Shown here piece after piece: positions 11,969 to 61,779 of a DNA stretch of 64,000 nt. Positions within the stretch are counted from its first letter, which is position 1, and every line of letters begins with the position of its first letter. The position numbers and the translations under genes were made by a program. Under the pieces are notes generated by a model, which ran no database searches, was not told the origin of the DNA, and saw only the letters and a program-made list of their open reading frames with translations. Source of the stretch: Nitrosopumilus sp. (GTDB lineage Archaea; Thermoproteota; Nitrososphaeria; Nitrososphaerales; Nitrosopumilaceae); NCBI GenBank assembly GCA_965224195.1, contig OZ245040.1, positions 1,216,001 through 1,280,000 of the forward strand, read 5' to 3'.

Positions 11969-13063
11969 TCAAAAATATGTTTTATGGATCATAAAAAACC
12001 GTCTCATCTCCTGATTATATGACATCATTTCCCTAACTGGTAATCTTGGGCAATTGCTGGGAAACTCTGATCTTGTGTTTGTTGCTGGCAATCTTGCAAT
12101 TTGTATGTCTGTTTTTCTGCACTGTTTTGAATTGTTCTAGCTGTTCTCTTTTAGGTACGGCACTACCTGTGAGCCCTCTGGATATCCATTCTCCTTTTTG
12201 CGAAAATTATCCCTGATTGTATAGATATCATCCATGGTAATCTTTGGCTTTGGAGATACAACTATGGCAATTTCTGTATTTTGTCTTGGGATTACTGGAT
12301 TTACATTTGTGCACTGCGGTATGCAGTTTGGCGTTTTTGCCCTGTTATCAAGTGTGATGCTGCACCAAGATTTTGTTCTTCCAAAATAATGTATGTTTCC
12401 TAGTATTTTTTGTAGGGTGCCTCTTTCTTTGTAATTCATGCTGAGATTCGGCCAAATAATCTGCACCTGCTCTTTTCTGTCTATCACGGCATATGTGTCT
12501 GCCCTCTGATTTTTGCTATTATGCGTTGAGTTGTCGTCTTGTTCATGCCCAAATGTTACTGGCGGCAGGTAAAACTCTGGCATGCTTGACGCCATCTTTT
12601 TAACTAATCCTGCTATCTTTTTTTCGCTGATGTGTGGTAGATTATATTTCCATGATGCAACCATTGCCCGAAGCAGTCTGTACGGTGATGGCGGCCATTC
12701 TGTAGTGTTTTCCGCATTTTTTATCCAGGATGTGGCATAGTATTTGCCTGTTGTAAACTTTATCTTGATTGTGATCAATATCTTTCAATCTACATGGCTA
12801 CAAAAGACTGGAAAAAAAGTTGTAAACTTTATCTTGATTGTGATCAATGCATTTGATTGTGTTTTTTGTTTATATGTTGTTATGCCTAATGATGCTTGCA
12901 AAAGTTGCGCATGAACAGTATGGCCTATTGCCTGCTGCAACCAGCGTATTCTGAAAATATGTCTCTCTGGATTGTTTTTTGATGTGTCTTGTATAACACA
13001 AAATATTTGTTCTAGGGCTGGAACTTTTTTGGATATGTGTGTTATATTTTTGGCATCCCTCAT
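11969..13063 (-). pseudogene. csb2: Second, diverged csb2-like gene (Cas5-like half) with N-terminal extension; broken by insert at 12780-12818 and TAG at 12137
   Basis: FTTGKYYATSW..EWPPSPYRLLRAMVASW..IHYFGRTKSWC; similarity to 13060..14484 continues past the stop (RKTDIQIARL vs KKTDVNIVRY); no Cas6 G-loop. Confidence 0.75.
12750..12848. repeat. 30-bp direct repeat x2 flanking a 39-bp unique insert
   Basis: gttgtaaactttatcttgattgtgatcaat at 12750-12779 and 12819-12848. Confidence 0.95.
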
Positions 13064-14484
13064 GTGGGAACAAACAAACCTAGGCCAAAATGTGAACCAT
13101 GTCCAAAAGATAACGGTCCTGACATCTCCTCCTCAAACTCTATTTTAACGCTATATGCCCCAAATCCTGGAAGTCGCTCTTTTCTCCATCGTTTGAATTG
13201 TATTGGCATAATGCCTGTTCTCATCCTGACTTTGGCGTCATCTATTCTTAGGCTCTTGATTTTTATTTCATCTCCAAATCTGTTTCTTATCTCGTCTCTT
13301 AGTTGATCCTCTGGACCGTCTACGACAATGTCTTTATTGCTGCCTTTTAATTTCATGTGTTTGTTGAGTACAAATGGCGTGACGGTTTCCCATTTTTTTG
13401 AATATTTTAAGATGGGGATTTTGTCAAAATCTACTGTTCTTCCACGTGCCTCATATGCCAGATCAAATGAATTTTCCGAATACCGTATCTTATTCATTAT
13501 GTTTAGTGCATCAAGCTCATTTTCATTAAATGGCTCTTTTGCAATTATTGTAATATGATCTAATATTTTGTCTTCATCTTCATCTGTGGGAAGGTAGTAT
13601 GTGTGTTTATGGCCCTTTAGTATTTGTCTGTTTGAATCTTTTCCTGAGAATGTTTCTGACAGCCCTCCATTATTTTTTTTACCGTAGATTGACATTACTG
13701 CTCTTTTGATGATATCCCCCACTTTGATTGTCTCGGTAATTTTTGGTCTCACATTTCCAGTAATCATGTATCTTACTATGTTCACATCTGTCTTTTTTGA
13801 ATTATGAATACTGGGTATCTGTGTCAGGCAGTCTGACTCACGGACATATTGAACAAATTGACTTTTATCTGGATGTGATTTTTTATTTTTGTACATATCG
13901 GGCACTTTCATGCATAGATTATCAAGAGTAGCATCTGGGGCTGGTATTATCACATCTATGATGTCTTTGTTTTCAAAGTTATTCCCTTCTAACAAAACAC
14001 AGTTTGGGCTGATGTCTTGCTCTGTGATTCTAACCCTGCACCACGACTCTGCTCTGCCAAGATATTTTATCTTGTTGACTATTTTTCCTAGTATCTCTTT
14101 TTGCTCTTCTTCAAGTTTTAGATCATCCCAATGTGCATAAAGGAGTCCACCTTTATTCATCATTACGAATGAATCGAGTACTTTTTCAGTTTTTTTTGTG
14201 ATTGGCATATAGTGTCTTGTATGCGTCTGGATGGCACTTGGAATCTCAAATGATACCTTATACTTGCACATTTGCTTTATTATTGGTTCTACTTTCGAAT
14301 CTTCAATCTCATTGGCATATATCTTCCATGCTGAAATTATAGCTCGTAATATGCGCCACGGTGACGGTGGCCAGTCTATTAATCCCTCATTTACATTGCG
14401 TCCCCAAGATGTGGCGTGGTATTGTCCTGCTAGAAATTCAAACTCTAACGTAAGTCCTGTATCTTTTTTGGAGTCTTTACTCAT
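13060..14484 (-). CDS. csb2: Type I-G CRISPR Cas5/Cas6 fusion Csb2
   Basis: GQYHATSWGRNVNEGLIDWPPSPWRILRA; YLGRAESW; C-terminal GPLSFGHGSHFGLGLF G-loop. Confidence 0.95.
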   Translation of the reverse strand: MSKDSKKDTGLTLEFEFLAGQYHATSWGRNVNEGLIDWPPSPWRILRAIISAWKIYANEIEDSKVEPIIKQMCKYKVSFEIPSAIQTHTRHYMPITKKTEKVLDSFVMMNKGGLLYAHWDDLKLEEEQKEILGKIVNKIKYLGRAESWCRVRITEQDISPNCVLLEGNNFENKDIIDVIIPAPDATLDNLCMKVPDMYKNKKSHPDKSQFVQYVRESDCLTQIPSIHNSKKTDVNIVRYMITGNVRPKITETIKVGDIIKRAVMSIYGKKNNGGLSETFSGKDSNRQILKGHKHTYYLPTDEDEDKILDHITIIAKEPFNENELDALNIMNKIRYSENSFDLAYEARGRTVDFDKIPILKYSKKWETVTPFVLNKHMKLKGSNKDIVVDGPEDQLRDEIRNRFGDEIKIKSLRIDDAKVRMRTGIMPIQFKRWRKERLPGFGAYSVKIEFEEEMSGPLSFGHGSHFGLGLFVPT

Positions 14485-14550
14485 TTCTCAAAATACTCCT
14501 ATGATGAGATTGGAGTGTTGACCTGAGGGCATCCTTTATCTTTACCTAGT

Positions 14551-15510
14551 CTATTTCTTATATGCAACTATTACTGGTTCAGGTAAATCTTTTCTGCATT
14601 TTTGAATCAGTTCTTTTATTTTTGAATCAAGAGTTGTTTTGTCTGGAAGTGTATAGTCTTTGGGTTCTGTTACCTGTATGTCTCCTTTTATTTTGAGGTC
14701 GCATGCAGTACGCAGTCTTAGTCCTGTCTCTAGAAATGCTCTTATCTTCCATAATGCAAGATTCGTTAATAATTCTGTTTGATCCTCATTTAGGCCATAA
14801 TTTTTTATCTGCTCCAGATCCAAGTTAAAGTATGCATGTATGGAATCTGACGTATACTCTATACGTGAAAATGGTATATGTCCCTGACCTTTTATTGAGC
14901 CACCATCTTCATCTTTTTTTGAGCCATCTTCTTTATCTTTGGATGATGGGTTTACATTATCAAACTTTACTCCTCCGCTTATTGCGTCATTTACATTATC
15001 TGCTTCGATAAATGCAGATAATGCACGTGGAATCTTTATTCTTCCAGATTTAATTTGTGATGCCCAAATGCCATGCAATAAAGAGTTTATATCTAATCGA
15101 AATAGTAATTTAGCAGTCTCTTTAATATCTACACCGTTACTGAATTTTTCTTCTAATGCTTCTAATTCTTTTGTAATCTCTGTATCTTTGTCAATTATAT
15201 AATATGAACATATTCGATGTGACTCTGAAACAGAATTTGTAATTTGTTTTCCATCTTTGTTTTCTACTTTAATCATTGTTAGTCCGTTTAATGGATCCAC
15301 AAAACCATCTCTATCTTTATTAAGGCAGACCAATTCCAAGCGATTTGCCATACTTTGAGCAGATTCTACCAGCAATGATCTAGTGCCCTCACTTAGTTGC
15401 ATCTCGGCTGCTCCTAAATCTGGAAATCCTGTGGGCTGAAATCGCTTACCTTGAACTGGCTCTAATTCTACTTTTAAAAGCAATCTGTTATTATTATTTA
15501 GATCATTCAT
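14551..15510 (-). CDS. cas7: Type I-G CRISPR backbone Cas7 (Csb1/Cas7g)
   Basis: PVQGKRFQPTGFPDLGAA, LLVESAQSMANRLE, NSLLHG, GLRLRTACDL. Confidence 0.95.
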   Translation of the reverse strand: MNDLNNNNRLLLKVELEPVQGKRFQPTGFPDLGAAEMQLSEGTRSLLVESAQSMANRLELVCLNKDRDGFVDPLNGLTMIKVENKDGKQITNSVSESHRICSYYIIDKDTEITKELEALEEKFSNGVDIKETAKLLFRLDINSLLHGIWASQIKSGRIKIPRALSAFIEADNVNDAISGGVKFDNVNPSSKDKEDGSKKDEDGGSIKGQGHIPFSRIEYTSDSIHAYFNLDLEQIKNYGLNEDQTELLTNLALWKIRAFLETGLRLRTACDLKIKGDIQVTEPKDYTLPDKTTLDSKIKELIQKCRKDLPEPVIVAYKK

Positions 15511-15679
15511 AACTAATCAACCAAATCTATATTTATTAAGTTATTGCTAGCCTGCTAGATGTGTACTTAAGATCCATTAGGCATTAAGAGATGTTTCTTT
15601 CATTTTCATATCAACTCATATTGAAAGATATGTTCTTTTGAGTTAAAATAGATACAATCCTTTGTGTCTTGGTCAGATG

Positions 15680-17890
15680 TTATTGGATGACAGTCTGTTT
15701 CTCTACTGCTGAAACATTATATATTTTTGATAATATCTCTTTTCTGTCTCTCTCATCTAATGGAAACAACAACGATGCTGTGATACGATCCATCATTTGT
15801 TTAGGTTTAGTTGACCCATGATTTGTTCCATTGGAATATGTAGATATGTTGTATCCTGTTACACAAAGACGTCGTCTACCCATATGCACTGCCTTGTCTA
15901 TTTTTCCTGCCTTGAGCAATCCCAACATCGATGGTTCAAATAATGCTTCTTTTGAAGTATTTCTACTTTTAAATGTCACTGGTGGAAAATTAGACTTTAA
16001 GACAATATATGATTCTGGTACAAAATTTGGAACTTTCCACCATTCTCGTTGGTTACAATAATCTGGCAGATGATCTCTTTTGTAATTTATTATGGATAAT
16101 GGAAGTAATAGATCAGATATTTTGTCATAGTTGACTTTGTCCTCTATGAAATCCATTACGTCTTTAACTGGCGCATTTATTGTTGAATTTAGCGATATCT
16201 TGGAGTTGGACATTTGTCCTTCTATACATCTTCGTTCTAGAATTCTGATCATATTGCTTGTTAAATTTGAATTTTGCCACACTGTGCTGCGACTTTCATG
16301 CTTCCATTCTGCTCTGTATTTGCTGCTTTCAACAGGTTCCAGATTTATTCTTATTCTCCCTTGATCTGCTGATGATATTGCTGCAAGTGAGACAGCAAGT
16401 CTAAACTCTGGCGTGTCATCATTACATGCTTGTATCCACTCGTGTGATAGATTTTGTATTGGAGAAATTTGTTTATTATAATTTGATGATTGTGATACTG
16501 CTCTTTCTAGTTTACCAATAATTATCAAAACATCTTGTAAATATTTTTTCGTACCATATGTGCAGAACTTTATAATTGCGTTATCTATGTTGCGTAATAA
16601 TGAGTCTATGCTCTTGGATAATTTCTTTGTTCCATTATGCCTCTTACGTATATCATTGATCCATTTGTCAATGTCTGAAAATAAACTCACATCTGGATTA
16701 TCTCCTGCCTTTATCCGTCCTATACTGTTTGCAAAATATGCCTGTCCCTTTCTCTCAAAAAACCCAAATCTCTGGAATTCTGATAATCCACGTTCTGTTC
16801 CCAAATTTGCCACGGCTCTGGCAAAATCAACGCCTGAATTAGAATTCTTTGAGGGCTTTTGGACTCTTCCTTCATTAAAGACGTATTTCATTTCATTATA
16901 TGTGGAAGGATTCTCCCATAATGGGATCCATATCTCTCCTCTGATCTTTTCATCACATGCAGTTCCATATCCTGCTGTAGATGAATCCGTAGAAAATGGA
17001 AATGCTGCACGTCTTGAATTAGAACGACGTGATACACTGCCTGCAAAAACTAATGTGCCTTCTATAGTAAGTATATAGTCCCAAGGATTTACAAAGCTGG
17101 TTTCGTTTCCATTTACAGATCTCCCTGTATACCTACCAGGTTGAAAATATACAAAACTGCCCCCTTTTAATTCCACTTGGGTATTGAAAAATGAATTGTT
17201 AATCCATTCTTTTGATTTCTTACTTTTATCTGCCGATCCAATGTTGGTAATTAATTCATTTATCCACATCATAAATTTATTTGAAATTTCCAAGTTACCA
17301 TCATTTGCACCAGATCCTAATATTGGCCCGTATGTTGGTTTATCCGAGGCTGCTACAACATATGCTGCATCCATCCATGGAATTACCTCATTGTCTAGTC
17401 TATTACGGCATTGTATTAGCAACGATTTCTTTCTTTTGGATATTATTTCTTTAATTTCCTCTGAATCTTTTTTTAGTGATTCATCTTTTAATGATCCGTC
17501 ATTTATGCACTGGGCTCTTTTTTTGATAAATTCTTTATATTCTGGAAACATGTATTTTAGAATATAATCGGTTTGATTTAACACTCTTTGGTATTTATCC
17601 AATCTCTTTTCCTTGGAATTTTTTATTTTATCAATATCGTTTTCATTTTTATCATAGAATCCGCTGCCTTTATTCCATGGAGATACTATTGGTGTGGGTG
17701 TATATTCTTCTAAAAAGAATCTGATCAACTCTTCTTGCGTCATTTTTGTCTGTAACACGAACGCGTCTCTCTCCCAATATGCTGTTGCATCAGGATCTGC
17801 TTGTTCTGAAACAATACGGAATATCCCTAATGCCTTTAGATTAGACGTTAGTGGATCAGGTGAACAGCCATCAAATTGTATCTTGTTCAA
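15680..17890 (-). CDS. csx17: Type I-G large subunit Cas8g (Csx17)
   Basis: GCSPDPLTSNLKALGIFRIVSEQADP, YTPTPIVSPWNKGSGFY, GANDGNL, NPWDYIL, EIWIPLW. Confidence 0.93.
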   Translation of the reverse strand: MNKIQFDGCSPDPLTSNLKALGIFRIVSEQADPDATAYWERDAFVLQTKMTQEELIRFFLEEYTPTPIVSPWNKGSGFYDKNENDIDKIKNSKEKRLDKYQRVLNQTDYILKYMFPEYKEFIKKRAQCINDGSLKDESLKKDSEEIKEIISKRKKSLLIQCRNRLDNEVIPWMDAAYVVAASDKPTYGPILGSGANDGNLEISNKFMMWINELITNIGSADKSKKSKEWINNSFFNTQVELKGGSFVYFQPGRYTGRSVNGNETSFVNPWDYILTIEGTLVFAGSVSRRSNSRRAAFPFSTDSSTAGYGTACDEKIRGEIWIPLWENPSTYNEMKYVFNEGRVQKPSKNSNSGVDFARAVANLGTERGLSEFQRFGFFERKGQAYFANSIGRIKAGDNPDVSLFSDIDKWINDIRKRHNGTKKLSKSIDSLLRNIDNAIIKFCTYGTKKYLQDVLIIIGKLERAVSQSSNYNKQISPIQNLSHEWIQACNDDTPEFRLAVSLAAISSADQGRIRINLEPVESSKYRAEWKHESRSTVWQNSNLTSNMIRILERRCIEGQMSNSKISLNSTINAPVKDVMDFIEDKVNYDKISDLLLPLSIINYKRDHLPDYCNQREWWKVPNFVPESYIVLKSNFPPVTFKSRNTSKEALFEPSMLGLLKAGKIDKAVHMGRRRLCVTGYNISTYSNGTNHGSTKPKQMMDRITASLLFPLDERDRKEILSKIYNVSAVEKQTVIQ

Positions 17891-20307
17891 TCTTTCTCTT
17901 TCCCCTCCTTTTCACTTGCCCTTGTATCGGCCGCGCGAATTACTGCCTCAAGCAATGCCAGCTTGAATGGTCCGTATTCTTTTAGCAAATTTAATGTCAT
18001 TTTTAACCACGATGGTTTACCGTCATTTGTGTTTCCTATTCTTGCAATATCTACAGTTATGTGTATTTTCTCTGACACGTTTTGTGTGAGGATCTTTTCT
18101 TTGTTATTTTTTGTTTTTTCATTTTTGTCTGATAAAAATATTGGAACATCTTCTCCTTTTTCCATGTCTATTCCTAAAAGGTACCTTTTATCATGTTTTT
18201 CCATGTTTCTCTTTGTTGGCATAGTTCTCATTGACAACCTGACCTTTCCATGATGTGATGCAATCAGATATGCCACGAGTTTTAACTCTGGCAGTTCTGG
18301 TTTTATGTTCAATACTGCCAAAGCGCTTATTGCCTCATGACGATAGTTATCAATCTCATGCGATGGTGAACCACTACCTCTTTTTGCCCAAAATGTATCA
18401 TTTGTAATATTACTATCTTTGACATTTTTCAACATTGTGTTCTGAAATACGTGATGTGCCTTGCCAATATCATGATATTCTGTAACACATTTCATAATGT
18501 CTTTTAATTCCTTTAGGTAATTTGTCTTGTCGATTATATCTTCTACTTCTTGGATCACATGCACCGTATGATCATTTAGGGTCACCCATTTCTTATTGTA
18601 CGAATCTGGATCATTATTCATTCCATCTCTTTGTGATGTGTCTGCACTATCTTGTTCTTCCACACTTTCGTTGTTTTTTAGATCCCATCCGATTTCATTA
18701 GAGTATCCGCCATCATTACTATTAATCAAGATTATTTGTCCAGGATATATTGTACTGATCCGCTCCCAGTTACCATCTTGTGCATTAAATGTCCAAAGTC
18801 TGATTTTTTCTTTCTTTCTAAAATCATTTATTTCACCTATTGGTACACTGCATATCTCATCATTAGATATTGTATTTTTTGGAGGTGACTCTTCCTTATT
18901 CCACTTTCTCCAAATGACTGATACGTCTGAGGACATCTCTAGCGCTCTGACATACATGGAGATATCCGTGTGATTCCCAGACATGTCTGGAATTGTGTCA
19001 AACAGCCCTATGATGTCTGGTTCTCTTATCACAGATTCATGTGTGATTTCTTTGCTTTGTGATCCAATTGTGCTTGGTGATACAGAACTATTGTATTTTT
19101 GGGCAAGTTTTTCCTGTACCTCTTCCATGTCTTTGTCTTCATATGGGTTGTATCTCTTTTTATCCAATTTTATTATGCTGATTGTAGAGTCATCATAATC
19201 GCCTTTTCGGTTACACCTTCCAAATCTTTGTACCAAGCTTGGCCAAGGTGCAGTTTCTGTAATCATTGTTTTGGCAGAGATGTCTACACCTGCTTCCACT
19301 ACTTGTGTGGATACAATTATCATATTTTTTTGATCAGACTTTGCTAGTTCTTCTAATTGTTTGTTCAGTTTCTGCCTCTCTTTCTTTCTAAATCTTGAAT
19401 GTATTAGCATGCAGTCATCACCCATGCTTTTTTTAATTTCTTTAAATATGCTCTGTGCTCTTTTTACCGTGTTAACTATAATCATGGTAAGTGTTCCCTC
19501 AACATGCTTTTCTCTGATTAACGCCACTTCATTTTTCGTATAATCATCCTTACTTATGGTTAAATCCATCTCTACAAGTTTCTTTTTAGCATTGTTTCTC
19601 TTTTTAAGATCTGTGTTGCTTGAATCTTCATCACTTAATTCAAAATGCGTACATTTTTTACTGTCAAAATCTATCGTGTCAAGCCACTGTGGATTTACAG
19701 TTGCAGACATCCATACTGTCTTGTGTGGACCATACGTGCCAATTTTATTTCTGAATGCTTCTAACTGTACAGATGTTGCAAGGCCATTACGCATTAGTTG
19801 AATCTCATCCATTATCCACAGACAGTCATTGTTTAGCAGTCCAAAATCCCTTGGCCATTGATATGGGCTTGCGGCATAGCCCCTGTTAAGTGCTCTTGAG
19901 AGAAGCATGTCCTGAGTGCCTACAATTATCATGCTTTCTTCTGGATTCATTATGTAATGCCGATCTACGTCACCACCCATCATTATAACCACTTTAATTT
20001 TATCTTCTAGTCCAAGTTTCTTTATCCACTCCTCGATTTTTCCCACGGTTTGCTCTACTAGTACGCGCATCGGTAGGCAGTATACTAGTCTTCGTGGAGT
20101 GTCTTGACGTATTTTTTCATCTGAATTTAAAATCCTCCACAAGTATATTCCTAAAACCGCTGCAGCTGTTTTTCCGGCACCTGTCGGTATGTTAAGAATG
20201 TCTGGAATGTCCTCCGAATCTGACAGTTTTTGTTGATAGGGATAAGGAGTAAAACTTGTGGCTTTTTTAAAAAATTCTTCAAATGTACTCGTAATGTAAT
20301 CACTCAT
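17887..20307 (-). CDS. cas3: Type I-G Cas3: SF2 helicase with C-terminal HD nuclease
   Basis: PTGAGKT, DEIQ, SAT, TQVVEAGVD, QRFGRCNR; then DHT, YHDIGK, RHE, SHHG, AAD; ATG at 20307 preferred over upstream GTG. Confidence 0.96.
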   Translation of the reverse strand: MSDYITSTFEEFFKKATSFTPYPYQQKLSDSEDIPDILNIPTGAGKTAAAVLGIYLWRILNSDEKIRQDTPRRLVYCLPMRVLVEQTVGKIEEWIKKLGLEDKIKVVIMMGGDVDRHYIMNPEESMIIVGTQDMLLSRALNRGYAASPYQWPRDFGLLNNDCLWIMDEIQLMRNGLATSVQLEAFRNKIGTYGPHKTVWMSATVNPQWLDTIDFDSKKCTHFELSDEDSSNTDLKKRNNAKKKLVEMDLTISKDDYTKNEVALIREKHVEGTLTMIIVNTVKRAQSIFKEIKKSMGDDCMLIHSRFRKKERQKLNKQLEELAKSDQKNMIIVSTQVVEAGVDISAKTMITETAPWPSLVQRFGRCNRKGDYDDSTISIIKLDKKRYNPYEDKDMEEVQEKLAQKYNSSVSPSTIGSQSKEITHESVIREPDIIGLFDTIPDMSGNHTDISMYVRALEMSSDVSVIWRKWNKEESPPKNTISNDEICSVPIGEINDFRKKEKIRLWTFNAQDGNWERISTIYPGQIILINSNDGGYSNEIGWDLKNNESVEEQDSADTSQRDGMNNDPDSYNKKWVTLNDHTVHVIQEVEDIIDKTNYLKELKDIMKCVTEYHDIGKAHHVFQNTMLKNVKDSNITNDTFWAKRGSGSPSHEIDNYRHEAISALAVLNIKPELPELKLVAYLIASHHGKVRLSMRTMPTKRNMEKHDKRYLLGIDMEKGEDVPIFLSDKNEKTKNNKEKILTQNVSEKIHITVDIARIGNTNDGKPSWLKMTLNLLKEYGPFKLALLEAVIRAADTRASEKEGKEKD

Positions 20308-20418
20308 AGTAATTAAATTATGATTACAAACATAAGCTTTTTGATGTAAAATCAGTGAAAAATTCACTAGGTATATAACGTATATCGTAAAGTATCTTTT
20401 TGGAATTAATATGTGTGA

Positions 20419-22801: not shown

Positions 22802-23477
22802 TCATTGGAAAACTGTCAGAACTGATTGTCCTTTTCTAGCCATAGTATCAATTGGCATTATTGAATGCAATGCTAGGTTTTCTGTATCATCTTTGACTAT
22901 CTTGCCATGCCTACAAGTTCTGCATCTAGGTTGTGTTCTGAGTCCCGTCTACCATTCTCCTAAATCCATTCTGATTTTGTGTCTCTTGCAAGGACACTGC
23001 CATCGCGTTACATCTTGGCAGGAACATCCCGTCCATTCACTACGTCATATTGTGTCTCTTGCAAGGACACTGCCATCGCGTTACATCTCTTGCATATCTC
23101 AAATGATCTTTCGGGTAATTTCATAGTACCTGATTTTCTACTTTGTGCAAATGTATGAAGTAAAGGTGTTCTACGTCTCCATCCACGTTTGTATTTGGAT
23201 ATAGTAAAACCAGTCCTCCAAAATTCGATTTATAATTTTGGTTATTTTGTGATCTACGGATGCCTTTGGTGAGATTATGATTTCCTTGCAATGATCAGGT
23301 GTTTTGATGTTTACAAATTTTATGTAGTCTTTAAGATGGAACAAAAATGCTTTCTCGTATAAAAACGCATCATTCAAAATATCTTCAAAGTTTTTAAATT
23401 GTTTTACATGTCCTGCAGTCACGGCAGGAGTAGTCTTAAAATTGGAATGTATTCTAATATAATTATAATGCATGATG
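22802..23477 (-). pseudogene. 3' part of IS6/IS1-like DDE transposase with Zn-finger extension, frameshifted
   Basis: HYNYIRIHSNFKTTPAVTAG; later CKRC..GFRRM..QPRCRTCR. Confidence 0.65.
22977..23088. repeat. 39-bp direct repeat x2 flanking a 34-bp unique insert
   Basis: ttgtgtctcttgcaaggacactgccatcgcgttacatct at 22977-23015 and 23050-23088. Confidence 0.95.
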
Positions 23478-24471
23478 GTACTCTGTCGAACAAATCATTT
23501 CTAACTAGTTTTTGATTTCATTCCCTCAAGCACCTGCAAACAGATTGTACAGCTCGACTTTTAATTTTAATTCCTTTGCCATGTATTTTCTTTTGTGAGC
23601 CATGACATACTCACCAAACATCCTTTTGAATGTTGAAAACACACACTCTACAATCCACCTGTCCCCATAGCTGACGCTGCGCTTCCACAAATCCAAATTA
23701 TACATTTGAGCCAAGACTGATTTCTTTCTCGGATAACATTTTGTTTTGAGAGATGATGTCTTTCTAACTTTGATTGCAGGCAGTGCATCTGTGTTGTGAT
23801 ATAGATATGAGAAGTTGTTTTCTGAATCATATGCGCCATCAGCTAGAACCTTGATTACATTTCCTTTCTGTGATGCCTGCTGTACCAGTTCTGGCAGATG
23901 TGCAGCATCATGGGATGAATCATCTGTTATTTTCAGTGAAACTATTTTCTTTGATTTGACATCGGCACCAACATGGATTTTTAGAAATCCTCTCCTCATG
24001 TGCCATTTCTGTCTCATCCATTCGCCCCTGTTTGCAACCTTGATTCCTGTGCTGTCAATTGCCAAAATGATTTCATTATTATCTCCAATGGAATCATCAG
24101 TTTTGATGTCAAGCTTGTTTATTCTCTTGTGGATTGATGTGAAATCAGGAACTGCTGGAACTCTATTACAATATGCACGTATCATTCCTTCTGTTTGTCT
24201 GAATGGTAATCCAAAATAGATTCTAGCATAACCCAATAATTTCATGAATGAATCAGGATAGTCAAACTTTCTACCTCTTTTGTTGTGATTCATGACCTCT
24301 AATTCTTTATGCCAGTTATCAATAGCATCAAATGACATTATGATCTCGCCTCTTCTGACTAGTTTTTCATTGTATTGATTCCAGTTAACCATGAGAATGG
24401 TCAGAATGTGAGATCCAAAGCTATTGTTATGAAATAAAGTTGATCAGATTGTTATTTGTTCGACAAAGTAC
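23478..24471 (-). mobile_element. Intact IS5-family (IS903-group-like) element; transposase 23526..24392
   Basis: 18-bp TIRs GTACT(C/T)TGTCGAACAAAT, flanking ATGATG duplication; NWNQYNEKLVRRG, IDSTG, ADGAYD, RWIVE. Confidence 0.95.
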
Positions 24472-24668: not shown

Positions 24669-24673
24669 TATTG

Positions 24674-36825: not shown

Positions 36826-37218
36826 TTAAGATTTTTTGATTTTAAGTATGCCTAAACCGATTTGAATTGAACCTACAACAATTAATGGGGCTGCTTCGGC
36901 CATTACATCTCTTCCAGACTCTTCAGCTGCTACAGGATCTGCATTGTCAATAACAACGGCTCCGCCCACTATGATCAAAATACCTGCAATTATGATCAAT
37001 CCGCCTAATCCTTTAGATGGTTCTTTTCTAGAAATAAAATATGCGATAAACGGCAAAATTAATGTCGGACTACCAATGGCCATACCTCTAATTTTATGAT
37101 CAAAAGGAATGAAACCTTCGCCACTATCAGAACTTAATCCAACGGCAACATCTGCTCCATAAACTACCAATAATGCAATTGCAATTCCAGTAAGGATTAA
37201 TGCAGGGGTTAAAGCCAT
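36826..37218 (-). CDS. Four-TM membrane protein
   Basis: Hydrophobic segments. Confidence 0.7.
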   Translation of the reverse strand: MALTPALILTGIAIALLVVYGADVAVGLSSDSGEGFIPFDHKIRGMAIGSPTLILPFIAYFISRKEPSKGLGGLIIIAGILIIVGGAVVIDNADPVAAEESGRDVMAEAAPLIVVGSIQIGLGILKIKKS

Positions 37219-45953: not shown

Positions 45954-45958
45954 GACCC

Positions 45959-52211: not shown

Positions 52212-52266
52212 ATTCCCAATTAAACACTATCAAAGATTTGAAATGTAAAAACTTGAACAAATTAGA

Positions 52267-53053: not shown

Positions 53054-53116
53054 CGCTGTATACACATGAACAATCAAACCAAAAAGATTAAAATGATTTG
53101 ACCTCAAAATTAAGAT

Positions 53117-53326: not shown

Positions 53327-53540
53327 ACTTGCAGGAAGCAAGATAATAAAAATTCTTGTTGACGAATTTGATTTTCAAGTTTCACGTCAGAGGGGGAGTC
53401 ATGTTGTTTTACATAAATTTGTAAAAGATAGAAAAATAGTCACCGTTGTCCCATTACATAAAGAGGTAAAGATTGGAACTATTTTCAGTGTTTTGTCACT
53501 TGCAGAAATCAAAAAAGATGATTTTCTTAAAAATCTTTGA
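53310..53540 (+). CDS. hicA: HicA toxin
   Basis: RQRGSHVVL..TVVPLH..GT. Confidence 0.9.
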   Translation: MLKFPKLAGSKIIKILVDEFDFQVSRQRGSHVVLHKFVKDRKIVTVVPLHKEVKIGTIFSVLSLAEIKKDDFLKNL

Positions 53541-53785
53541 TATGATGAACGCCAAATAATTAGTTTTGATAAGAAATTGTTTTCAGATCACCAAAATTTA
53601 ACAGCAGGGCTACAATAGAGAATTTTATTCTAAATTACCAAGTACAAATTATCAATAATATTCAAAATCAATTTGGAGAAGATCTTTATTTCATGATTAA
53701 TGATGTAGATCACTGGAATTTACCAGAACCGTTTGTTGAGTTGTTGATTTTTGTAGATTCTTGTTGATCCTGTTTTAATTCTAAT

Positions 53786-54512
53786 GTACTGTGCTGCACA
53801 ACTGAGTAATTTTTCTTACAGTTTACACTGAATCATTTGATTAACCATACACCTGCAAACAGATTATACAACGCAGTTTTGATTTCCAATTCCTTTGCCA
53901 TGTTGGAATATTTGTGTTCCATAACATGCCTCACCAAAGAACCGTTTGAATGATGAGAATGCCGACTCTACAACCCACCTGTCTCCATAGTCTACGCCAA
54001 GCTTCCACAGGATCCAAATTGTACAGTTGTGCCAAAACAGATTTTCGTCTTGGATGACAGTCAGCATAGATAGATGATGTCTTTCTCACTTTAATTGCAG
54101 GTAGTATTTCCTTGTCATAATAGCAGTATGAGAAATTATTTTTAGAATCATATGGACACCATCTGCCAGAACCTTTACTATCTTGTTATCATTCTTTTCT
54201 GCTTGTTCTACTAGGGAAGGTACAAGTTGAGCATCATGGGATGAATCATCAGTTATTTTTAGTGAAGGAATATTTTTTGTTTTGGCATCAGCTGCCACAT
54301 GAATTTTGAGGAACCCTCTTCTCATATTCCATTTCTGCCACATCCATTCACCCCTGTCTGCAGGCCTTAATCCCTGTTATCAGTTGCAATTACCACATCA
54401 TCACCAACTTTTTGGTTTGTCTTGACATGCAACTTGCTTACTCTTCTTTGTATGGTGGAATAATCTGGTACGTCAGGAATATGTTTTGCGTGAGATTTTA
54501 CCATTCCTTGAG
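53786..54512 (-). mobile_element. Decayed IS903-group-like element (5' part lost)
   Basis: RRGFLKIHV, DDSSHD, YGDRWVVES fragments; end gtactgtgctgcacaact resembles the 23478 TIR. Confidence 0.8.
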
Positions 54513-54514
54513 TA

Positions 54515-54947
54515 GACCTCTTGCATAATTAACCAAATCTGATAGAACAGTCCAAATTCATTCACAGCAAGATCCAAAGCTAAGTACAAACCATTTCATT
54601 TCATGCCAAATTATACAAAACTGGCAGGAAAACCAAAACAGTTCCTGAGATTTACAGGAATAACTGCAACACAATTTGATTTTTTGACAAAAGAGATACA
54701 GAAACAATACAAGATTACAGAGAGAAAAAGACTCTCAAAAAAAGACAGAAAAAGAAACATTGGAGCTGGAAGACCATTCAAACTTTCAGCAAGGGATAGG
54801 ATTCTGATGCTGCTAATTTACTATCGTTGCTATACAAGCTATGATTTACTGGAATATCTGTTTAGAGTTGATTCATCAACAGTGTGTAGAGACATTGCAA
54901 AAATAGAGTCTGCAGTGAAATGTGTAATTCCAATTCCTGTCAAACTG
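54515..54947 (+). mobile_element. 5' half of a second ISL2-like element, truncated by the next IS
   Basis: TA then gacctcttgc end; ORF 54603..54950 is an HTH_Tnp_4-like N-terminus whose stop is at the junction. Confidence 0.8.
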
Positions 54948-54949
54948 TA

Positions 54950-56015
54950 GATGAGTTGTGCAATCAGTCCAATTTGAGCATAATCTCAACATTTTCTAAT
55001 CATAAGATCCAAAGCTAAGGCTGAATTATTTTCAATTCATGTTTAATTGCACAAACTGGCAAAAAAACCAAAGCAATTCCTGCCAATAGCAGGATTAACT
55101 GTTCCACAATTTGATTCCCTATACAAAGAAACAAAGAAAAATTACAAAACTGCAGAACAAAAGGGATTGTCCAAAAATAGAGAAAGGGACATTGGTGCAG
55201 GACACAAGTTTGACTTGTCCTTCAAAGGCAGAATTCTAATGTTTTTCATGTACTACAGAATGTACACAACATATGATATGCCAGGGATGACATTTGATTT
55301 GGACAAACCAAACGTAATGAGAAACATCAGATGTTTGGAGCCTGCAGTGAAGCAGTCCATTATAATTGCTGCCAAAAAATATGCAGACTCAAAAAAGATT
55401 AACAGCATGCAGGAATTGCAAGAATTCTTTCCGGAATTAATTGCAATCACTGATGGCACATAACAGCCCATCCCAAGACCAAAAAACAAAAAGAAAAGAA
55501 GGACACACCATTCAGGCAAAAAGAAAAAGCATGCAGTACAAAATCAAATCGCCATAAATCTTGATGGGATAACAATCCACAAATCTGCACATTCGCCTGG
55601 CAGTCATCATGATTACAGAATTTACAAATCAAAGCATCCAACATTGTCTGAAGGGTTGTCGCAGTCTTATGATCTTGGATATTTGGGGATGGAAAAAGAC
55701 TTTCCAGAACAGGCAAGTGTTTTGCCATACAAGAAAAAGAAAGGAAAAAAATTGACTGTTACTCAAAAGGAGTGGAACAAGATGCAGTCAAAAATTAGAA
55801 TAAAAGTTGAACATGTTATTGCACAAATCAGGCAATTTCGGATAAATCGCGATGTGTTTAGAAACAAATTATGCAGATATGATGTGACAAGTGAAATTGT
55901 TTGTGGGCCTGTCAATTTCAAGATTAAATGGAAAGAAGAATTCATTGCAATTCCATAAAATTAAAAATTAAATGACAGAAAAGTTAGATTTTTGTTTGTA
56001 ATTGCGCAACTCATC
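54950..56015 (+). mobile_element. ISL2-like element copy 2 (nonsense at 55461)
   Basis: Same 1066-bp length, TIRs and TA flanks as 46722..47787. Confidence 0.92.
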
Positions 56016-56512
56016 TAATGCATAAAGGCATACATTGCAGCCTGCAAATACCACACATCCCGTCGTTTGCCGTAACGAGGCTTTCGCGTCGTCTTGAAAT
56101 CAATGACGGATGAGACGCCATCATATGCTGCAATGACATCTGCAGTTCCGGCCACTTTGAGGGAATCTGATTTTAGCACAGTCTCAAGGGATTGTATGTT
56201 TGTGATTCTATCAAAGTGCTGTTCTATTTGTGAAACATGTGCAGACGAGATTAGACCTGTTTTGTCAACATCAAGTCCAGCTAATTTTTGGTATAAAGCT
56301 GCATGTGTTGCAGTTCCAATTTTTGCTGCATTGTTTCGTCGATCTTCTAAAGCTTCTGGGGATAAATTCACATACTGCATCCACGATTTGTCCTGCATTG
56401 AGTCAAGCAGTGTTGTTGCAGACGCATAGATTGAGTTGTCATGAGAGTAATATCGAAAATCATTCTCATCGTGGCAAACTATTTGTTCTTGTTGAATTTG
56501 TATTTGTTCCAT
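56015..56512 (-). pseudogene. Phage-type PD-(D/E)xK exonuclease (MGME1/Cas4-like fold), truncated by IS
   Basis: YASATTLL, GTATH, AGTADVI..VIDFKT, LQAAMY; stop created at IS junction. Confidence 0.8.
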
Positions 56513-56586
56513 GGCATAGTATACATTGAACGTATACTTATAGTTTTACATTGAATGGATATATACTTCTAATGTTAGAGATTAAT

Positions 56587-56730
56587 ATGAGTAAAAAAGT
56601 TGATGGTAATTATTGGCGACATGAATGCAATAGATGTGGGTATATTTGGTATAGTTTGAACAAGGAACCAAAAACATGTCCGAATTCAAATTGCAGATCT
56701 CCATACTGGAATAAAAAGAGAGTAAGATAA
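56587..56730 (+). CDS. 47-aa zinc-ribbon protein
   Basis: CNRCGYIW..PKTCPNSNCRSPYWNK. Confidence 0.7.
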   Translation: MSKKVDGNYWRHECNRCGYIWYSLNKEPKTCPNSNCRSPYWNKKRVR

Positions 56731-56804
56731 AACAGAAGGCGATGACTGATCTTATGCCCACGAGCCCTCATAAACTTAAATGACTCAATAATTCCAAAAT
56801 TACA

Positions 56805-57668
56805 ATGATAAGATTAAGTTCGTTATTGCTAGCTATATCTTTAGTAGCAGTTGCAGTAACCATGACTACAATCCAACCAGTATCAGCAAATACCACCGAT
56901 AATCTATTTGCAGACTTTAGATCAGATATACATGATCTAATATTCTCAGGTAATTACACTTGGGAGCAAGCAAAAGATATTCAACACATACATGATGCTG
57001 AACTTGAACAAATCATCGATCAAATCGAGATAGGTAAAAACGAGAGAATGGATCCACAAAGTAGAGAAGGTCTCAAGGAATACATGTTGTTAGAAGAAAT
57101 AAAACACCAACAGCTTCTTCATGACAAGTCCAGAGTTATTGATTCTACTCAAGGATCTGAAATAGAAACAAATGATCCGGAATTATTTGGATACTTTTTT
57201 CCTGCAGCTTTTGCAGACTGTGATAAACAATCTGAGCTCGTTTATTTCAGACAGTCTTAAATTGATATCCGGGGCGGTACCTTAGATGGTTTCACTTTTG
57301 AAGGAAGTAATGATTTAACTTCCGTCACTAGAGAAATTCTTGATGATTGTTCTGTCTTGTATGTTTTGACCTTTGAGGATGAAGATCATCCTAAATGGGA
57401 TTCTTGGTATGATGATGCACGTATTGTGATTTACCAACGTGTACAAGATATTGAAAAGTTCACCATATTTGATGATACCATAACATATGTTAACATCTGG
57501 TCTGATGACAAATCATATAGTTATCTTAAATATGGTGCATTTAGTCAACATGCCGACCATGTTGGTGATTTTGAAAGAATCATGTATGTTGCAAATACGT
57601 GGAATCATTCAATGGATACTGAAAATACAAACCCCGACTTGAAACAAAAGTTTCAAAGATTCAGGTAA
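56805..57668 (+). pseudogene. Secreted protein split by one in-frame TAA (57258-57260)
   Basis: ORFs 56805..57260 and 57357..57668 share a frame with open sequence between. Confidence 0.75.
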
Positions 57669-57691
57669 CTCCTATTTTTTTGTAACTTCTT

Positions 57692-57895
57692 TTAATTTAA
57701 AATATCACTCCAAAAATTATTACATTTTAGTTGACTGTGTTCTAAGCATAGTATATCATCAAGTGTACGAGGAACACAATCTACCACACCTCCACGCTGA
57801 TATACACATGTCTCAATAAAACCCAAACTAATAATCGTAACAGCTACAACTGCAACACCAATCAAAAACAACTTGTTACCAAAACTTAACTTCAC
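57692..57895 (-). CDS. Small membrane-anchored Cys-containing protein
   Basis: TM followed by four Cys. Confidence 0.5.
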   Translation of the reverse strand: MKLSFGNKLFLIGVAVVAVTIISLGFIETCVYQRGGVVDCVPRTLDDILCLEHSQLKCNNFWSDILN

Positions 57896-57966
57896 ACTGC
57901 ACTATAAGGAATTAGAGTTAAAAGTTTTATCAAGTTAACGGGTGTTAGGTAAAAATTTTATTCGTG

Positions 57967-58248
57967 TCAAGTGTCGGGTGTTTTTGAGGTATTGACTATA
58001 AACTCAAAAACTTTTTCTTTATTTATGATAATTCTAAGTTCATCATCATTTTTGAATTGATATTTTGTATATAATTGAGTAAGCATAATGCAATTTTTGT
58101 TATTCACTTTTATTTTATAGGTTCTTCCTTGAAATTTTACTTTAAAAATCTTATCTTTTGCTGGAAATTTTGATCTGGTTTCTTTTGGCAATCCCACATA
58201 CTTGTATTTAGATTCACTTGCAGATAAATTTTTGACAAAATCTATCAT
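57967..58248 (-). CDS. Small protein, possible B3/EcoRII-N-like DNA-binding fold
   Basis: FVKNLSASESKYKYVGLPK resembles FxKxLTxSD..LxIPK; ATG at 58248. Confidence 0.4.
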   Translation of the reverse strand: MIDFVKNLSASESKYKYVGLPKETRSKFPAKDKIFKVKFQGRTYKIKVNNKNCIMLTQLYTKYQFKNDDELRIIINKEKVFEFIVNTSKTPDT

Positions 58249-58291
58249 CCAACCAATCACCTTTTCACGTTTTGAAAAACACAAATCAAGA

Positions 58292-58675
58292 TTATCTGGA
58301 AATACCTAAATCCAGTTCCATGATCGTGCCCATATCTCCGTAATTACAATGATCAATCTCTATTTTAGAATCATTGACAATTATCAGAAAATCATCATCA
58401 TTTCCATAAAGCGTATTTCTTGAAACTGCATTTATGGTTGTATGTAATTTCTTTTTACCATTGCTAGATTCACGCCCAAATTTTTCAAGTAATGAAATGT
58501 TTATTTTTTCTGGTAGAGGTGCTTTTGTAAACAGTGTAAGCATACTAGATGAGCCTTTTCTAGCTGATTTTAGTTCTGTTTGATGTTAATTGGAACCTGA
58601 AATATTATTTTCTTCAATGCCCAATAAATTCTCCAATGTTTTAGCAATACCTGTATTTCCAGAGACAAGAAGCAT
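58292..58675 (-). pseudogene. MvaI/BcnI-family restriction endonuclease remnant
   Basis: GNTGIAKTLENLLGIEENN..*..ELKSARKGSSSMLTLFTKAP; in-frame TAA, truncated. Confidence 0.75.
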
Positions 58676-58689
58676 AATGTTATCTCTAC

Positions 58690-59250
58690 TGAATTTGGCT
58701 GGAACTATTCTTGTGAGGATCAGAATTTTAGAAAGACTTGTTGCAAACATTCCATGCAGTAGAGATTAGCTTGGCTATTAGAAAAGAAGTAAAGCCAAAA
58801 GTTGTTTTAAGTTCCGTAAATATTGATTCCTGTATGTATTGCAAATCTGACAAGATAAGAAAAGATGGAATCAGAAAGAACAAGACACACTCAATCCAGA
58901 GACTAAAGTGTATAGACTGCAAGAAGTATTCTCTATCAATCTGGGATTTGAAAAGATGCATGCCTCACTTGAAACTATCACCAGTGCAATGCAACTTTAT
59001 TTCACAGGTGAATCTCTAAGAGGTGTTAAACAATTCTTAAAACTTCAAGGTATCAATATGTCCCATCAATCTGTTTTCAACTGGACCAAGAAATACACCA
59101 AACTCATGGACAATTATCTCAATACAATTACTCCGCATGTAGGTGAGAAATGGCACGCAGATGAAGTGTGGCTCAAAGTAAGGGGTGATAGAAAGTATTT
59201 GTTTGCCATAATGGACAACGAGACTAGATTTTGGATTTCCCAAGTAGCAG
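58690..59250 (+). pseudogene. IS6/IS240-like transposase fragment with SWIM-like and Zn-finger N-terminal parts
   Basis: SCED..CKH, CMYC..CIDC, GESLR, WHADEVW..KYLFAIMD; frameshifts. Confidence 0.8.
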
Positions 59251-59699
59251 ATTCAAATTTCCCCCTTTTTCTTTTTTTAAATGCCACAAAAATGCCTAGG
59301 ACTATGCAAGAAATTTCAGTCAATGTCCCCCTAACTGCATCTGGAATTTATCATGATCAAGAGAGCAGCAGCAGAAAAAATATAATTAGGCCAAAAGCGG
59401 GAGCGAAGAGAAGGACGAAATCAAAAATGCACGCGGTTCATCATCTCCTTTTAAAAATAATTTTTGGCAATAACATTATTGCATATCAGGTTCTGCTAAC
59501 TTATCAAGGGATATGAATTTTCTCTAAATTGAAAAATTTGAATTATGAAAGATATTATTTGTATAAGCATATAGTCAAAAATCACAGAATTAAAAAAATT
59601 GTTTGTGGTGTGCTAAAAATATCAATTAGTTCATCAATGGATTCCATACAAAAAAAGATGGAATCAGGAATCGTACATTGCAGTCTTACTTTTAAAGTC

Positions 59700-60079
59700 A
59701 TCATCATCTGGTTCGTATGTGGTATGACTAGTCTGGCAGTCCAAGTAGTTCGATGAAAGTCACTCTCCTCTGGATTTTTCTCAATATCTTTGTCAAGTGA
59801 TTCTAATTGCGCATCAGACAGTCGACAAGGCCTGCCTGGACTCTTGCGATCGTATCTCCAATCCATGCTGGTTTTGAGCTTACTCAACTATTCGTGTATG
59901 GTACTTGTACTCTTTCCAATTGCCTTGTGTATTTCAGATAGAGTCTTTCCTCCCTTTCTGAATATGGCAGCCCAGATCTTGGTTTTGACCTTGTAGTCTG
60001 GTTCATTTGCATGCATCAATTTGAGATCTTCTATAATGGAGTTTTCCGATTCATTAGTGGGATTACTATGGGCGATCAC
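59700..60079 (-). pseudogene. IS630-family transposase N-terminal fragment
   Basis: STIHE*L..DRKSPGRPCRLS..WTARLV. Confidence 0.7.
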
Positions 60080-60612
60080 AACTGTAGTAGGAACACTTTC
60101 TGCCCTTTGAATTTTACTGTGTGGCCAACATCGGAAGCATCCGTGACAGGTTTGTTTTTAAGAAATTTTTATTTTATTTTTCACCTGCCGCATGATTCAA
60201 AAAATAATATCAAATCAAATTCAGGATTAAATGAAATGGGTATGTTTGATAGCAACAATGAGATGCATATTATTGTATTTAGGTTAAAAAAAGGCATTGC
60301 ACCGGTTATAGTTAAGATTCCAAAGACCAATGTGGATGGTAGTAAAATGAGATATAGTGGTTTCATTTTAAAAAAAAGAAAAGATGGTTGTCATTTAAGT
60401 CAACTCAATTAATCTTGCATACCCGTTATTGTATGATGATTCGCCAAAGTATCCTGTATTGCCTTGGTTGTAAAGTCCAGTTGAACCTACACCAGTGTTA
60501 CCTGATAAATCATTCCTTAGAAGAAGATCTATATTTCATGTTATCCCTCGAAGATTACACAGAACCCAGAAAAACTAGCTTTGTTAATAAAGCTAGTTTA
60601 ACAATTTCAATA

Positions 60613-61439
60613 TTGTATAAAAACGCAAAAACCATAGTATTTGCTTCGGTAATTGTGGCAATGATTCTGCCATTTTCTGGTATGAATTATGCATAAGCAA
60701 AAACAGATGAAACAAAATATAGCAAATCAGATGTTGACAAATCATTTAGGAATTCAGAAGGTTATGTCAGTTTTGAGAAAAAGGACAACCAAATGAAAGT
60801 AGACATTAGAAAAATGATCAACGATGGTCTAGATGCCAAAGATATCAAGATTATTGGAGCATGGGCAAAATTATACAACAATGTATGAAATCTTACATGA
60901 ATGGTGATAGAGAAGGAACTGGTGCTGCTTTAGCAAAAGCTGCTACGGGTCCTTTCAGTCATCTTACAAATGCTCAGACAACCGCAATAGGATCTAATGA
61001 TGGTAGTGTAAGTAATGCTTCTTACATCACTCCTGTTAATTATTGGTCTTTGTCTGCTTGTGGAATCACTTATGGTTCTAATGATCATCCAGAACCTCCA
61101 ATTGAAATTGGATTGCATGATTATTACAGTCTATCTTCTGCACAATCAGAATTAGCAAGTTCAGGATATTATCAAGTTCAATGGCCTTGGATTGATGTTG
61201 GCGATGATGGTAAAGTCTATGCCAAAATAAATACAACAGGTTATGGTGATTGTGATAATGGTGAATTTAGAGATGAAAATCATATCTACGATACGTATCA
61301 TGTCAAAGTAGATAATGTGTGGTATGAACCTGTTCTAAGTTTAATACAGGTAAATGAGCCAAACCCTGATCTGAATGCTTATTCTGCTCCAACCTTCTGG
61401 TGAGATGTTTACGTTGCTGCTTGGCATTATAGCAACTAA
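60613..61439 (+). pseudogene. Secreted EPNP..WW..WH-family protein, disrupted
   Basis: KTIVFASVIVAMILPFSGMNYA* signal, frameshift near 60880, EPNPDLNAYSAPTFW*DVYVAAWH. Confidence 0.7.
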
Positions 61440-61496
61440 CCTCTTTTTTTTTATTTTGAAAAAATAATATTAATTCCAATTGGAATTTTAATTTTC

Positions 61497-61779
61497 ATGG
61501 TGATTATGTTTAGTCTTGTATTGATTGCAAATTATGTACCCTACAAAACTTGGGGAAGTAATGAACACTATTATTTACCACAAGATGGTTTTGAAGTGAC
61601 TTGTGATTATATGCCGTTACAAAAACCAACTAATTGTAGATTCGTAACATCTCAGGCTGTCCATCACATATGCTGGAATTTCTGTGTTACAAAAACCAAC
61701 TAATTGTAGACCCGTAACATCCGATAATAATTTTCCGGATGTTGAAGCAGACACTATCACCATATCCCCAAAACTATAA
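61497..61779 (+). pseudogene. Small membrane protein frameshifted by the 61616-61721 duplication-insertion
   Basis: Removing one 70-bp unit gives ..CDYMPLQKPTNCRPVTSDNNFPDVEADTITISPKL*. Confidence 0.6.
61616..61721. repeat. 36-bp direct repeat x2 (2 mismatches) flanking a 34-bp unique insert
   Basis: gttacaaaaaccaactaattgtaga(tt/cc)cgtaacatc at 61616-61651 and 61686-61721. Confidence 0.95.

Follow-up and report, generated by a model that had tools for sequence, protein, structure and literature searches.

Repeat-insert-repeat units scattered through a Nitrosopumilus genome are very likely scars of off-target spacer integration by its own Cas1-Cas2 complexes

Integration of spacers outside CRISPR arrays has been described in Escherichia coli, in which the type I-E Cas1-Cas2 complex acts at off-target positions and gives rise to 'neo-CRISPR' loci (Nivala, Shipman and Church 2018, Nat Microbiol). 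According to papers that cite this work, the events were rare and were detected by deep sequencing after overproduction of Cas1-Cas2, and one citing preprint speaks of only 'circumstantial' evidence for natural off-array integration in two other species. Here we analyze a 64,000-nucleotide stretch of a Nitrosopumilus sp. genome (C1:1216001-1280000 of genome G000, hereafter the window; genome 2.07 Mb, 33.6% G+C, two contigs) containing three units in which a repeat-sized sequence is duplicated around a spacer-sized insert, together with the genome-wide set of 38 units to which they belong. The units share with the neo-CRISPR loci, as these are described in the citing papers, the spacer-sized insert and the repeat-length duplication of ordinary chromosomal DNA, a tendency (weak in our units) towards targets resembling leader-repeat and repeat ends, and the idea that such events may seed arrays. 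In contrast to E. coli, about 39 fixed events are found here in one wild-type archaeal genome, the systems are a type I-G Cas4g/Cas1g, a 37-nt-repeat module and type I-B instead of type I-E, and there are two ruler classes, self-derived inserts and recurrence in sister species. The process is known from E. coli; the interest here lies in the scale of the fixed natural events and in what they allow to be measured. A literature search, supplementary files excluded, turned up no account of numerous off-target events fixed in nature, and none in archaea.

Other described systems resemble the units in part. Canonical type I-G adaptation (PMC10504553) likewise involves a Cas4g/Cas1g fusion and Cas2 beside a 36-nt-repeat array, with the same spacer length, but it takes place at the leader-repeat junction with spacers selected by a protospacer adjacent motif (PAM), whereas the units described here lie in genes and in copies of insertion sequences (IS), and their donors have no common PAM. 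Ectopic acquisition in Streptococcus thermophilus and S. mutans (PMC7999890, PMC8265633) is also integration away from the leader-proximal repeat, though it occurs at a true CRISPR repeat within an array, while the duplicated 'repeat' in our units is non-CRISPR host DNA. Casposons (PMC4046053, PMC8464041) have in common with the proposed origin of the units a Cas1-family integrase producing a target-site duplication.

The three units of the window, whose coordinates are collected in Table 1, had been proposed in a first-pass annotation as possible products of a promiscuous Cas1-type integrase, and all three were confirmed, as was the mutual unrelatedness of their duplicated sequences. With a per-base match probability of ~0.277 (window composition), 64 kb should contain ~3e-11 exact 30-mer repeats at one of ~20 nearby distances, which excludes a chance origin. 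The annotation also had each duplication as coding sequence of the surrounding gene and the local frame restored by deletion of one unit, and both statements hold for unit 1. This unit lies at the N-terminus of a short Csb2-like gene that it splits into the open reading frames (ORFs) 12785-13063 and 12137-12778, and its deletion turns stop-to-stop frames of 215 and 115 codons into one of 308, matching the N-terminus of the ortholog. The coding claim found no support at units 2 and 3, the surrounding ORFs of which matched no Pfam family and had no orthologs among 30 relatives; deletion of unit 3 merely joins two short frames (87 codons become 89) and that of unit 2 restores none.

Table 1. Features of the window and CRISPR arrays of the genome. 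Positions are those of the window unless preceded by C1.
Feature	Position	Strand	Remarks
Unit 1, target copy 1	12750-12779		30 nt; minus strand encodes LITIKIKFTT, start of short Csb2-like gene
Unit 1, insert	12780-12818		39 nt; minus strand adds stop codon to gene
Unit 1, target copy 2	12819-12848		30 nt, identical to copy 1; period 69
Unit 2, target copy 1	22977-23015		39 nt without mismatch; extends to 42 nt (from 22974) if 1 mismatch is allowed
Unit 2, insert	23016-23049		34 nt, G+C 17/34; period 73
Unit 2, target copy 2	23050-23088		39 nt
Unit 3, target copy 1	61616-61651		36 nt; starts GTTACAAA, resembling repeat terminus
Unit 3, insert	61652-61685		34 nt; period 70
Unit 3, target copy 2	61686-61721		36 nt; 2 adjacent mismatches vs copy 1
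Unit 1 host gene, short Csb2-like (N-terminal Csb2 homology)	12137-13063	-	NCBIfam TIGR02165, E 4.3e-17
Type I-G effector operon	13060-20367	-	NCBIfam matches, all over cut-offs
Csb2	13060-14484	-	member of type I-G effector operon
Csb1/Cas7g	14551-15510	-	member of type I-G effector operon
Cas8g1/Csx17	15680-17890	-	member of type I-G effector operon
Cas3g	17887-20367	-	member of type I-G effector operon
Donor locus (protospacer)	37098-37132	+	35/35 nt match to insert of C1:886994; conserved gene in relatives
Empty-site copy in IS5-family fragment	11273-11309	-	single 37-nt target, duplicated around insert at C1:1639458
Array A1	C1:707205-713740		36-nt repeat, 90 copies, spacers mostly 36-37 nt
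Array A2	C1:941990-946529		30-nt repeat, 69 copies, spacers 36-37 nt
Array A3	C1:1457181-1466783		37-nt repeat, 132 copies, spacers 35-36 nt

The whole genome was scanned for ungapped direct-repeat pairs with at least 22 of 24 positions identical, at a distance of 30-300 nt and free of any further repeat diagonal over 150 nt around them. The 68 isolated pairs so obtained show a sharp size peak, the period being 70-74 nt in 31 and 75-79 nt in 5 more, with no other 5-nt bin holding more than 3, and the peak coincides with the repeat plus spacer lengths of the genome's own CRISPR arrays, a test that the annotation had proposed. Periods of 60-85 nt were found in 39 isolated pairs, from which a curated set of 38 units was derived by dropping 5 and adding 4 from the non-isolated list (912527, 912671, 1090869 and 1326525; these four are absent from the BLAST analysis of inserts, which took the 34 core inserts). 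Dropped were the pairs 778956 (51+27), 1053011 (20+52) and 1129510 (49+29), with duplications of 51, 20 and 49 nt; C1:1626225, a pair of true I-G-like repeats; and C1:196381, a direct repeat of 62-nt period (C1:196376-196470) that occurs with similar sequence and period in the related genome G014 (L060:6039) and was left out as a conserved feature, not an integration scar.

The dimensions of the 38 units are narrowly distributed. Duplications of 36 nt (10 units), 37 nt (8), 38 nt (6) and 39 nt (4) predominate, the others measuring 34-35 nt (3), 30-32 nt (4) and 42-46 nt (3), where apparent boundaries can stretch 1-2 nt by chance. Inserts are 34-38 nt long in 33/38 units (full range 32-45 nt) and the period is 70-76 nt in 35/38. 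These values are those of the arrays: the inserts match the spacer modes of 35-37 nt, and the duplications match the repeat lengths of 36, 37 and 30 nt, with 36-38 nt in 24/38 units and 30-32 nt in 4/38. The main size class, with duplications of 35-39 nt and periods of 70-76 nt (typically about 36-38 + 35-37 nt), corresponds in its dimensions to arrays A1 and A3, and a minor class (duplication 30-32 nt, period 66-69 nt), with unit 1 (30+39) and C1:912671 (32+34), to array A2. The duplicated sequences themselves are 38 unrelated host sequences with two copies each; none matches the A1, A2 or A3 repeat, so that the units fall outside the definition of a canonical array, with at least three copies of a dedicated repeat and a leader. 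The two copies of a unit are identical in 24/37 cases and differ at one position in 12/37 and at two in 1/37, and the integration events are therefore young.

Eight of the 38 units lie within 41 kb at C1:882.7-923.1 kb (882675-923186), a region of seemingly ordinary genes (TFB-, TBP- and helicase-like, judged by first residues only) where four of the eight hold self-derived inserts. A preference for the vicinity of arrays was considered and discarded: 13/38 units lie within 60 kb of one against ~7 expected, the excess being driven by a single cluster whose duplications do not fit the nearest array.

The genome possesses the enzymes that such integration would demand. Each of the three arrays adjoins cas1, cas2 and cas4, and the three Cas1 and three Cas2 hits have no internal stops. 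The integrase at A1 is a Cas4g/Cas1g fusion of type I-G (NCBIfam NF049935, 714.7 bits, cut-off 560), that at A2 is Cas1b (436.5 bits, cut-off 304) and the Cas1 at A3 matches the generic Cas1 model only. The annotation had proposed to look for a cas1 gene, and three intact ones are present, one being the type I-G fusion. Since no stand-alone Cas1 was found in the genome, all three Cas1 hits lying beside Cas2 and an array, there is no casposase. The annotation had likewise recognized a type I-G effector in the window, identified here as Cas3g, Cas8g1/Csx17, Csb1/Cas7g and Csb2, and had noted no array nearby; neither array nor cas1 adjoins this operon, and the second remark is right for the window, although the genome has three large arrays, each at least ~180 kb away.

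Several observations concern the type I-G genes and repeats. The two-repeat orphan array at C1:1626225-1626320, with a 74-nt period, carries a repeat variant closer to the repeats of the relatives G009 and G014 than to the A1 repeat of its own genome. Furthermore, csb2 occurs in pieces: besides the short N-terminal Csb2-like gene (window 12137-12778), a 238-aa C-terminal fragment (L002:3027-3743) adjoins cas4g/cas1g, and a 230-nt copy at C1:703580-703810, 90% identical to window 12125-12355, stops 3 nt before the unit at C1:703813.

The origin of the inserts was traced by BLAST for the 34 core units. Near-full-length matches elsewhere in the genome were found for 8/34 inserts, the ends of the match being the ends of the insert, and no donor locus was detected in the genome for the other 26. 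One donor lies in the window (Table 1), and the insert of unit 3 matches C1:49540-49567 at 27/28 nt; the annotation's statement that no insert recurs within the window is nonetheless true. The unit 1 insert has no longer match elsewhere in the genome, and that of unit 2 has none in the genome nor, at up to 3 mismatches, in 150 same-genus genomes. None of 288 array spacers matches the genome outside arrays (E below 1e-4). Inserts are GC-richer than the genome, as had been noted for two units of the window and holds generally, with 40% G+C against 33.6%, and in this they equal array spacers (40-42%). They form no common sequence family, nor do they have terminal inverted repeats in common, the BLAST search retrieving donor loci only, and microhomology between donor and target flanks does not exceed 1-2 nt, which argues against template-switch repair. 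We infer that raw uptake includes much self DNA, and that self-targeting spacers are purged from arrays and tolerated in units, because the flanking 'repeats' of a unit cannot yield CRISPR RNA (crRNA).

Empty alleles, with one target copy and no insert, were found both in related species and in paralogous copies, amounting to 8/38 units (6 paralogous and 2 orthologous). Targets lie in multicopy sequences in 9/34 units; for six targets of this kind other copies align perfectly over both flanks and contain a single target without insert, one such copy being in the window (Table 1). The unit 1 orthologs of G009 and G014 (67-78% identical DNA) have one target copy, and after removal of the unit the N-terminus aligns residue for residue with the intact 237-aa protein of G014. 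The unit at C1:886994 is absent in clean alignments from G015, G017 and G014, and a split BLAST pattern, such as a single target copy would give, was obtained in 12 relatives. No usable ortholog was found for units 2 and 3, for C1:1490408, whose surroundings have none, or for C1:739057, for which there was no clean alignment across the site.

The insertions do not respect reading frames. The period is not a multiple of 3 in 26/38 units, near the two-thirds expected without selection on the frame, and at 8 sites two open frames merge, once the unit is removed, into one that is clearly longer (for instance 327 and 120 codons into 414, and 197 and 117 into 284), while 7 in-frame units stay inside open frames.

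The choice of target may not be entirely random. Read from the outside inwards, the three array repeats have similar termini (GCTTCAAT, GTTTCAAT and ATTTCAAT), and the repeat-terminal 8-mer GYTTCAAT, fixed a priori, is present at a unit end with at least 6/8 matches in 5/34 units, against 2.7% of 20,000 random segments, and with at least 7/8 in 3/34, against 0.33%. In an orientation-free logo built from all 74 ends, G/C is preferred at position 1 (47/74), T at positions 2 and 3, G at position 4 (28), A at positions 5 to 7 (39 at the last of them) and C at position -2 (27), with chi-square p values of 1e-4 to 1e-6. These two analyses were used in place of an expectation-maximization (EM) logo, which was near noise and had several sites visibly mis-oriented. 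The bias at the unit ends is real but weak, suggesting a slight resemblance to repeat termini. Internal inverted repeats, which the annotation had listed as a feature of each duplication, do not distinguish the targets: 5-nt stems are present in the window units, yet the longest inverted repeat has a mean length of 4.30 nt over 37 units and of 4.31 nt over 3000 random genomic segments, and the RNA folding energy is -3.6 against -3.1 kcal/mol (p = 0.07).

One locus, C1:1090832-1091014, is a nested unit of structure X(37)-Y(36)-s(35)-Y(36)-X(37) in exact 73-nt register. Its simplest history is that X was duplicated around Y and that Y, the first spacer, was subsequently duplicated around s; hence a unit can be targeted again. 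This single case is the sole hint in favor of the array-seeding activity suggested by the annotation.

The assembly was checked against Logan contigs from the runs X1 and X2, belonging to one study and possibly the assembly's own data, and X3, from another. Independently built contigs were found to carry units 1 and 2, where the annotation had called for confirmation in raw reads. Unit 1 is spanned with 0 differences by a 10.7-kb contig in X1, one in X2 and a 2.4-kb contig in X3. At unit 2 the unitigs break because its 39-nt repeat exceeds k = 31; the insert unitig (22986-23079) has a depth of 110 against 112 and 116 in the flanks (X1) and of 500 against 416 and 463 (X2).

Units also occur in other species. 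Samples of 400 kb, in 20 stretches of 20 kb, were drawn for six other genomes of the genus and searched with the same detector, making seven genomes with G000, at a coverage of 18-29% each; G000, sampled likewise at five offsets, yielded 3-9 units. G009, with arrays of the 36-nt and 30-nt families, has 3 units per 400 kb, including some of 72-73 nt period, and G014, with 36-nt, 30-nt and 37-nt families, has 4, one of them 31+35 = 66; the Cas4-Cas1 fusion is present in both. In G018, in which Cas2 and a six-repeat I-G-like array of 72-74 nt period were found and Cas1 was not, there are 2. G007, with neither Cas1 nor Cas2 found, has 0 typical units and one 51+21 pair. The only Cas1 of G017 is one of 332 aa that resembles the I-B type. 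The gradient in density over these seven partly sampled genomes fits a dependence on Cas1 but is not clean. The 400-kb samples taken for G002 and G018 (L065-L104), two genomes assigned by label to this genus, have 53% G+C, and those of G000, G007, G009, G010 and G014 have 31-37%.

Considering (i) the architecture of the units, (ii) their two size classes, (iii) the empty sites, (iv) the donor loci, (v) the intact integrases and (vi) the units in sister species, we regard it as very likely that off-target spacer integration, carried out by Cas1-Cas2 complexes of the genome itself, left the units behind as scars, the reading that the annotation had put forward and that the size peak, the Cas1 genes, the empty alleles and the independent contigs support. 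In the mechanism that we propose, the steps of which are drawn from known Cas1-Cas2 chemistry, a Cas1-Cas2 complex loaded with a 34-38-nt prespacer would bind chromosomal DNA that weakly resembles repeat termini; two staggered strand-transfer attacks would then be made one repeat length apart, and gap repair would duplicate the stretch between them. Catalysis would be carried out by Cas1-Cas2. The main class may be produced by the 36-nt type I-G Cas4g/Cas1g, by the 37-nt module or by both, the I-G module being favored because G009, which lacks a 37-nt array, still has units of 72-73 nt period; the minor class, unit 1 included, would fit the 30-nt Cas1b module. As their 'repeats' are host sequence, the units are probably inert and would not be expected to give crRNA, and this inertness would explain the survival of self-derived inserts.

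A number of results weigh against this interpretation. The link to Cas1 is correlative. An empty site was demonstrated for just the 8 units mentioned. The 3 units with duplications of 42-46 nt, like a handful of pairs measuring 49-57 nt, do not obey a strict ruler. The motif at the unit ends is weak, the EM orientation run giving ~8 bits over 48 positions, near noise. Comparison of the inserts with viral and host DNA, which had been recommended, yielded the eight host donors and nothing viral: 5/5 inserts tested, those of the three window units among them, had no exact match in viral_contigs, a search of little weight without array spacers as control, and a foreign origin is demonstrated for none of the inserts. 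The shared PAM also recommended as a check was not seen: the 8 donor loci have no 3-nt motif in common on either side, whichever orientation is read, a small sample possibly served by three modules; its absence is surprising because Cas4-assisted uptake would predict one. In addition, a contig of X4 with a depth of 2 leaves out exactly 73 nt at unit 2 (window 22976-23050), reflecting either an empty allele that is rare in the sample or, at this low coverage, an artefact of the de Bruijn graph, and 1 typical-looking unit per 400 kb was detected in each of G002 and G010, for which searches yielded neither Cas1 nor Cas2; the two may be remnants of systems since lost.

The last of these findings, together with donor loci devoid of a PAM, would be accounted for if staggered breaks ~36 nt apart arose independently of Cas1, through another integrase or a nuclease, and were filled with captured DNA, or through break repair with templated fill-in, so that the CRISPR dimensions would be a coincidence. 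We consider this improbable, given that the two size classes mirror the 36/37-nt and the 30-nt repeats, in G014 as well as here, that the inserts equal array spacers in length and G+C, that unit ends weakly resemble repeat termini, that junctions between donor and target show at most 1-2 nt of microhomology and that unit density is highest in genomes with Cas1. It could also be imagined that the units are functional elements kept by selection, either mini-CRISPR arrays or regulatory repeat pairs, a view to which the re-use of a unit as target in the nested case and the orphan I-G-like array at C1:1626225 lend some color. However, 38 unrelated host sequences in two copies each, broken frames, mended at 8 sites by removal of the unit, a hairpin potential no greater than that of random DNA and empty orthologous sites in relatives make selection of this kind very improbable.

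The two remaining explanations appear extremely unlikely. Errors of assembly or sequencing might be suspected from the X4 contig that skips unit 2, but unit 1 is reproduced without differences in three runs of two studies and the unit 2 insert is as deep as its flanks at 110x and 500x; moreover, errors would generate neither a CRISPR-size peak nor donor loci nor like units in the assemblies of other species. Footprints or insertions of a small transposable element (miniature inverted-repeat transposable element, IS or casposon) whose target-site duplication is exceptionally long could be thought of in a genome so rich in IS copies, and are as hard to credit: the inserts form no shared family, have no terminal inverted repeats and lead in BLAST to donor loci only. 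Casposons are kilobase-sized elements with much shorter target duplications, whereas the inserts here measure 32-45 nt and the genome has no stand-alone Cas1 that could act as a casposase.

Additional repeats were observed in the window and beyond. A tandem repeat of 69 nt (and 18 nt), with 3.4 copies at 83% identity, occupies window 3556-3957 in a 133-aa minus-strand ORF; the coding repeat is apparently rich in Lys, Ala and Pro, and similar arrays exist elsewhere, e.g. at C1:1074723. The IS5-family element at window 23479-24392, which also stands at many other sites, must have many copies, because its contig depth is 1000-2600 against 112 for unique DNA (X1), with many variant positions. Repeats ~8.2 kb apart are present at window 46895/55123 and 47729/55957. 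Repeats of 147-156 nt period, at C1:499656, 1795055 and 1984080, recur in every sampled genome and encode a conserved motif, approximately ...WIKNNAGWWADGxIDD..F..GIQ.LI... (read by eye from the DNA).

Natural evidence for off-array integration has hitherto been called circumstantial, and here a wild-type genome carries about 39 fixed events, some of which split genes, with further units in sister species. The units make it possible to test the in vivo fidelity of adaptation modules and the mutational cost of active adaptation, the capture of self DNA before selection (8/34 unit inserts against 0/288 array spacers), the sequence cues that an integrase reads in the absence of a leader, and the birth of new arrays; the same repeat-insert-repeat scan can be applied to any genome. 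Beyond this, there is about an even chance that in this archaeal lineage a CRISPR integrase, most likely the type I-G Cas4g/Cas1g-Cas2, is a chronic natural mutagen acting genome-wide, and that the units constitute an archive of unselected captures showing the first steps of array birth. If that is true, about a quarter of the archive would be self DNA, taken up without a PAM filter, against none in the arrays, and the nested unit, in which a second event used the earlier spacer as its 'repeat', would show the natural birth of an array at its beginning.

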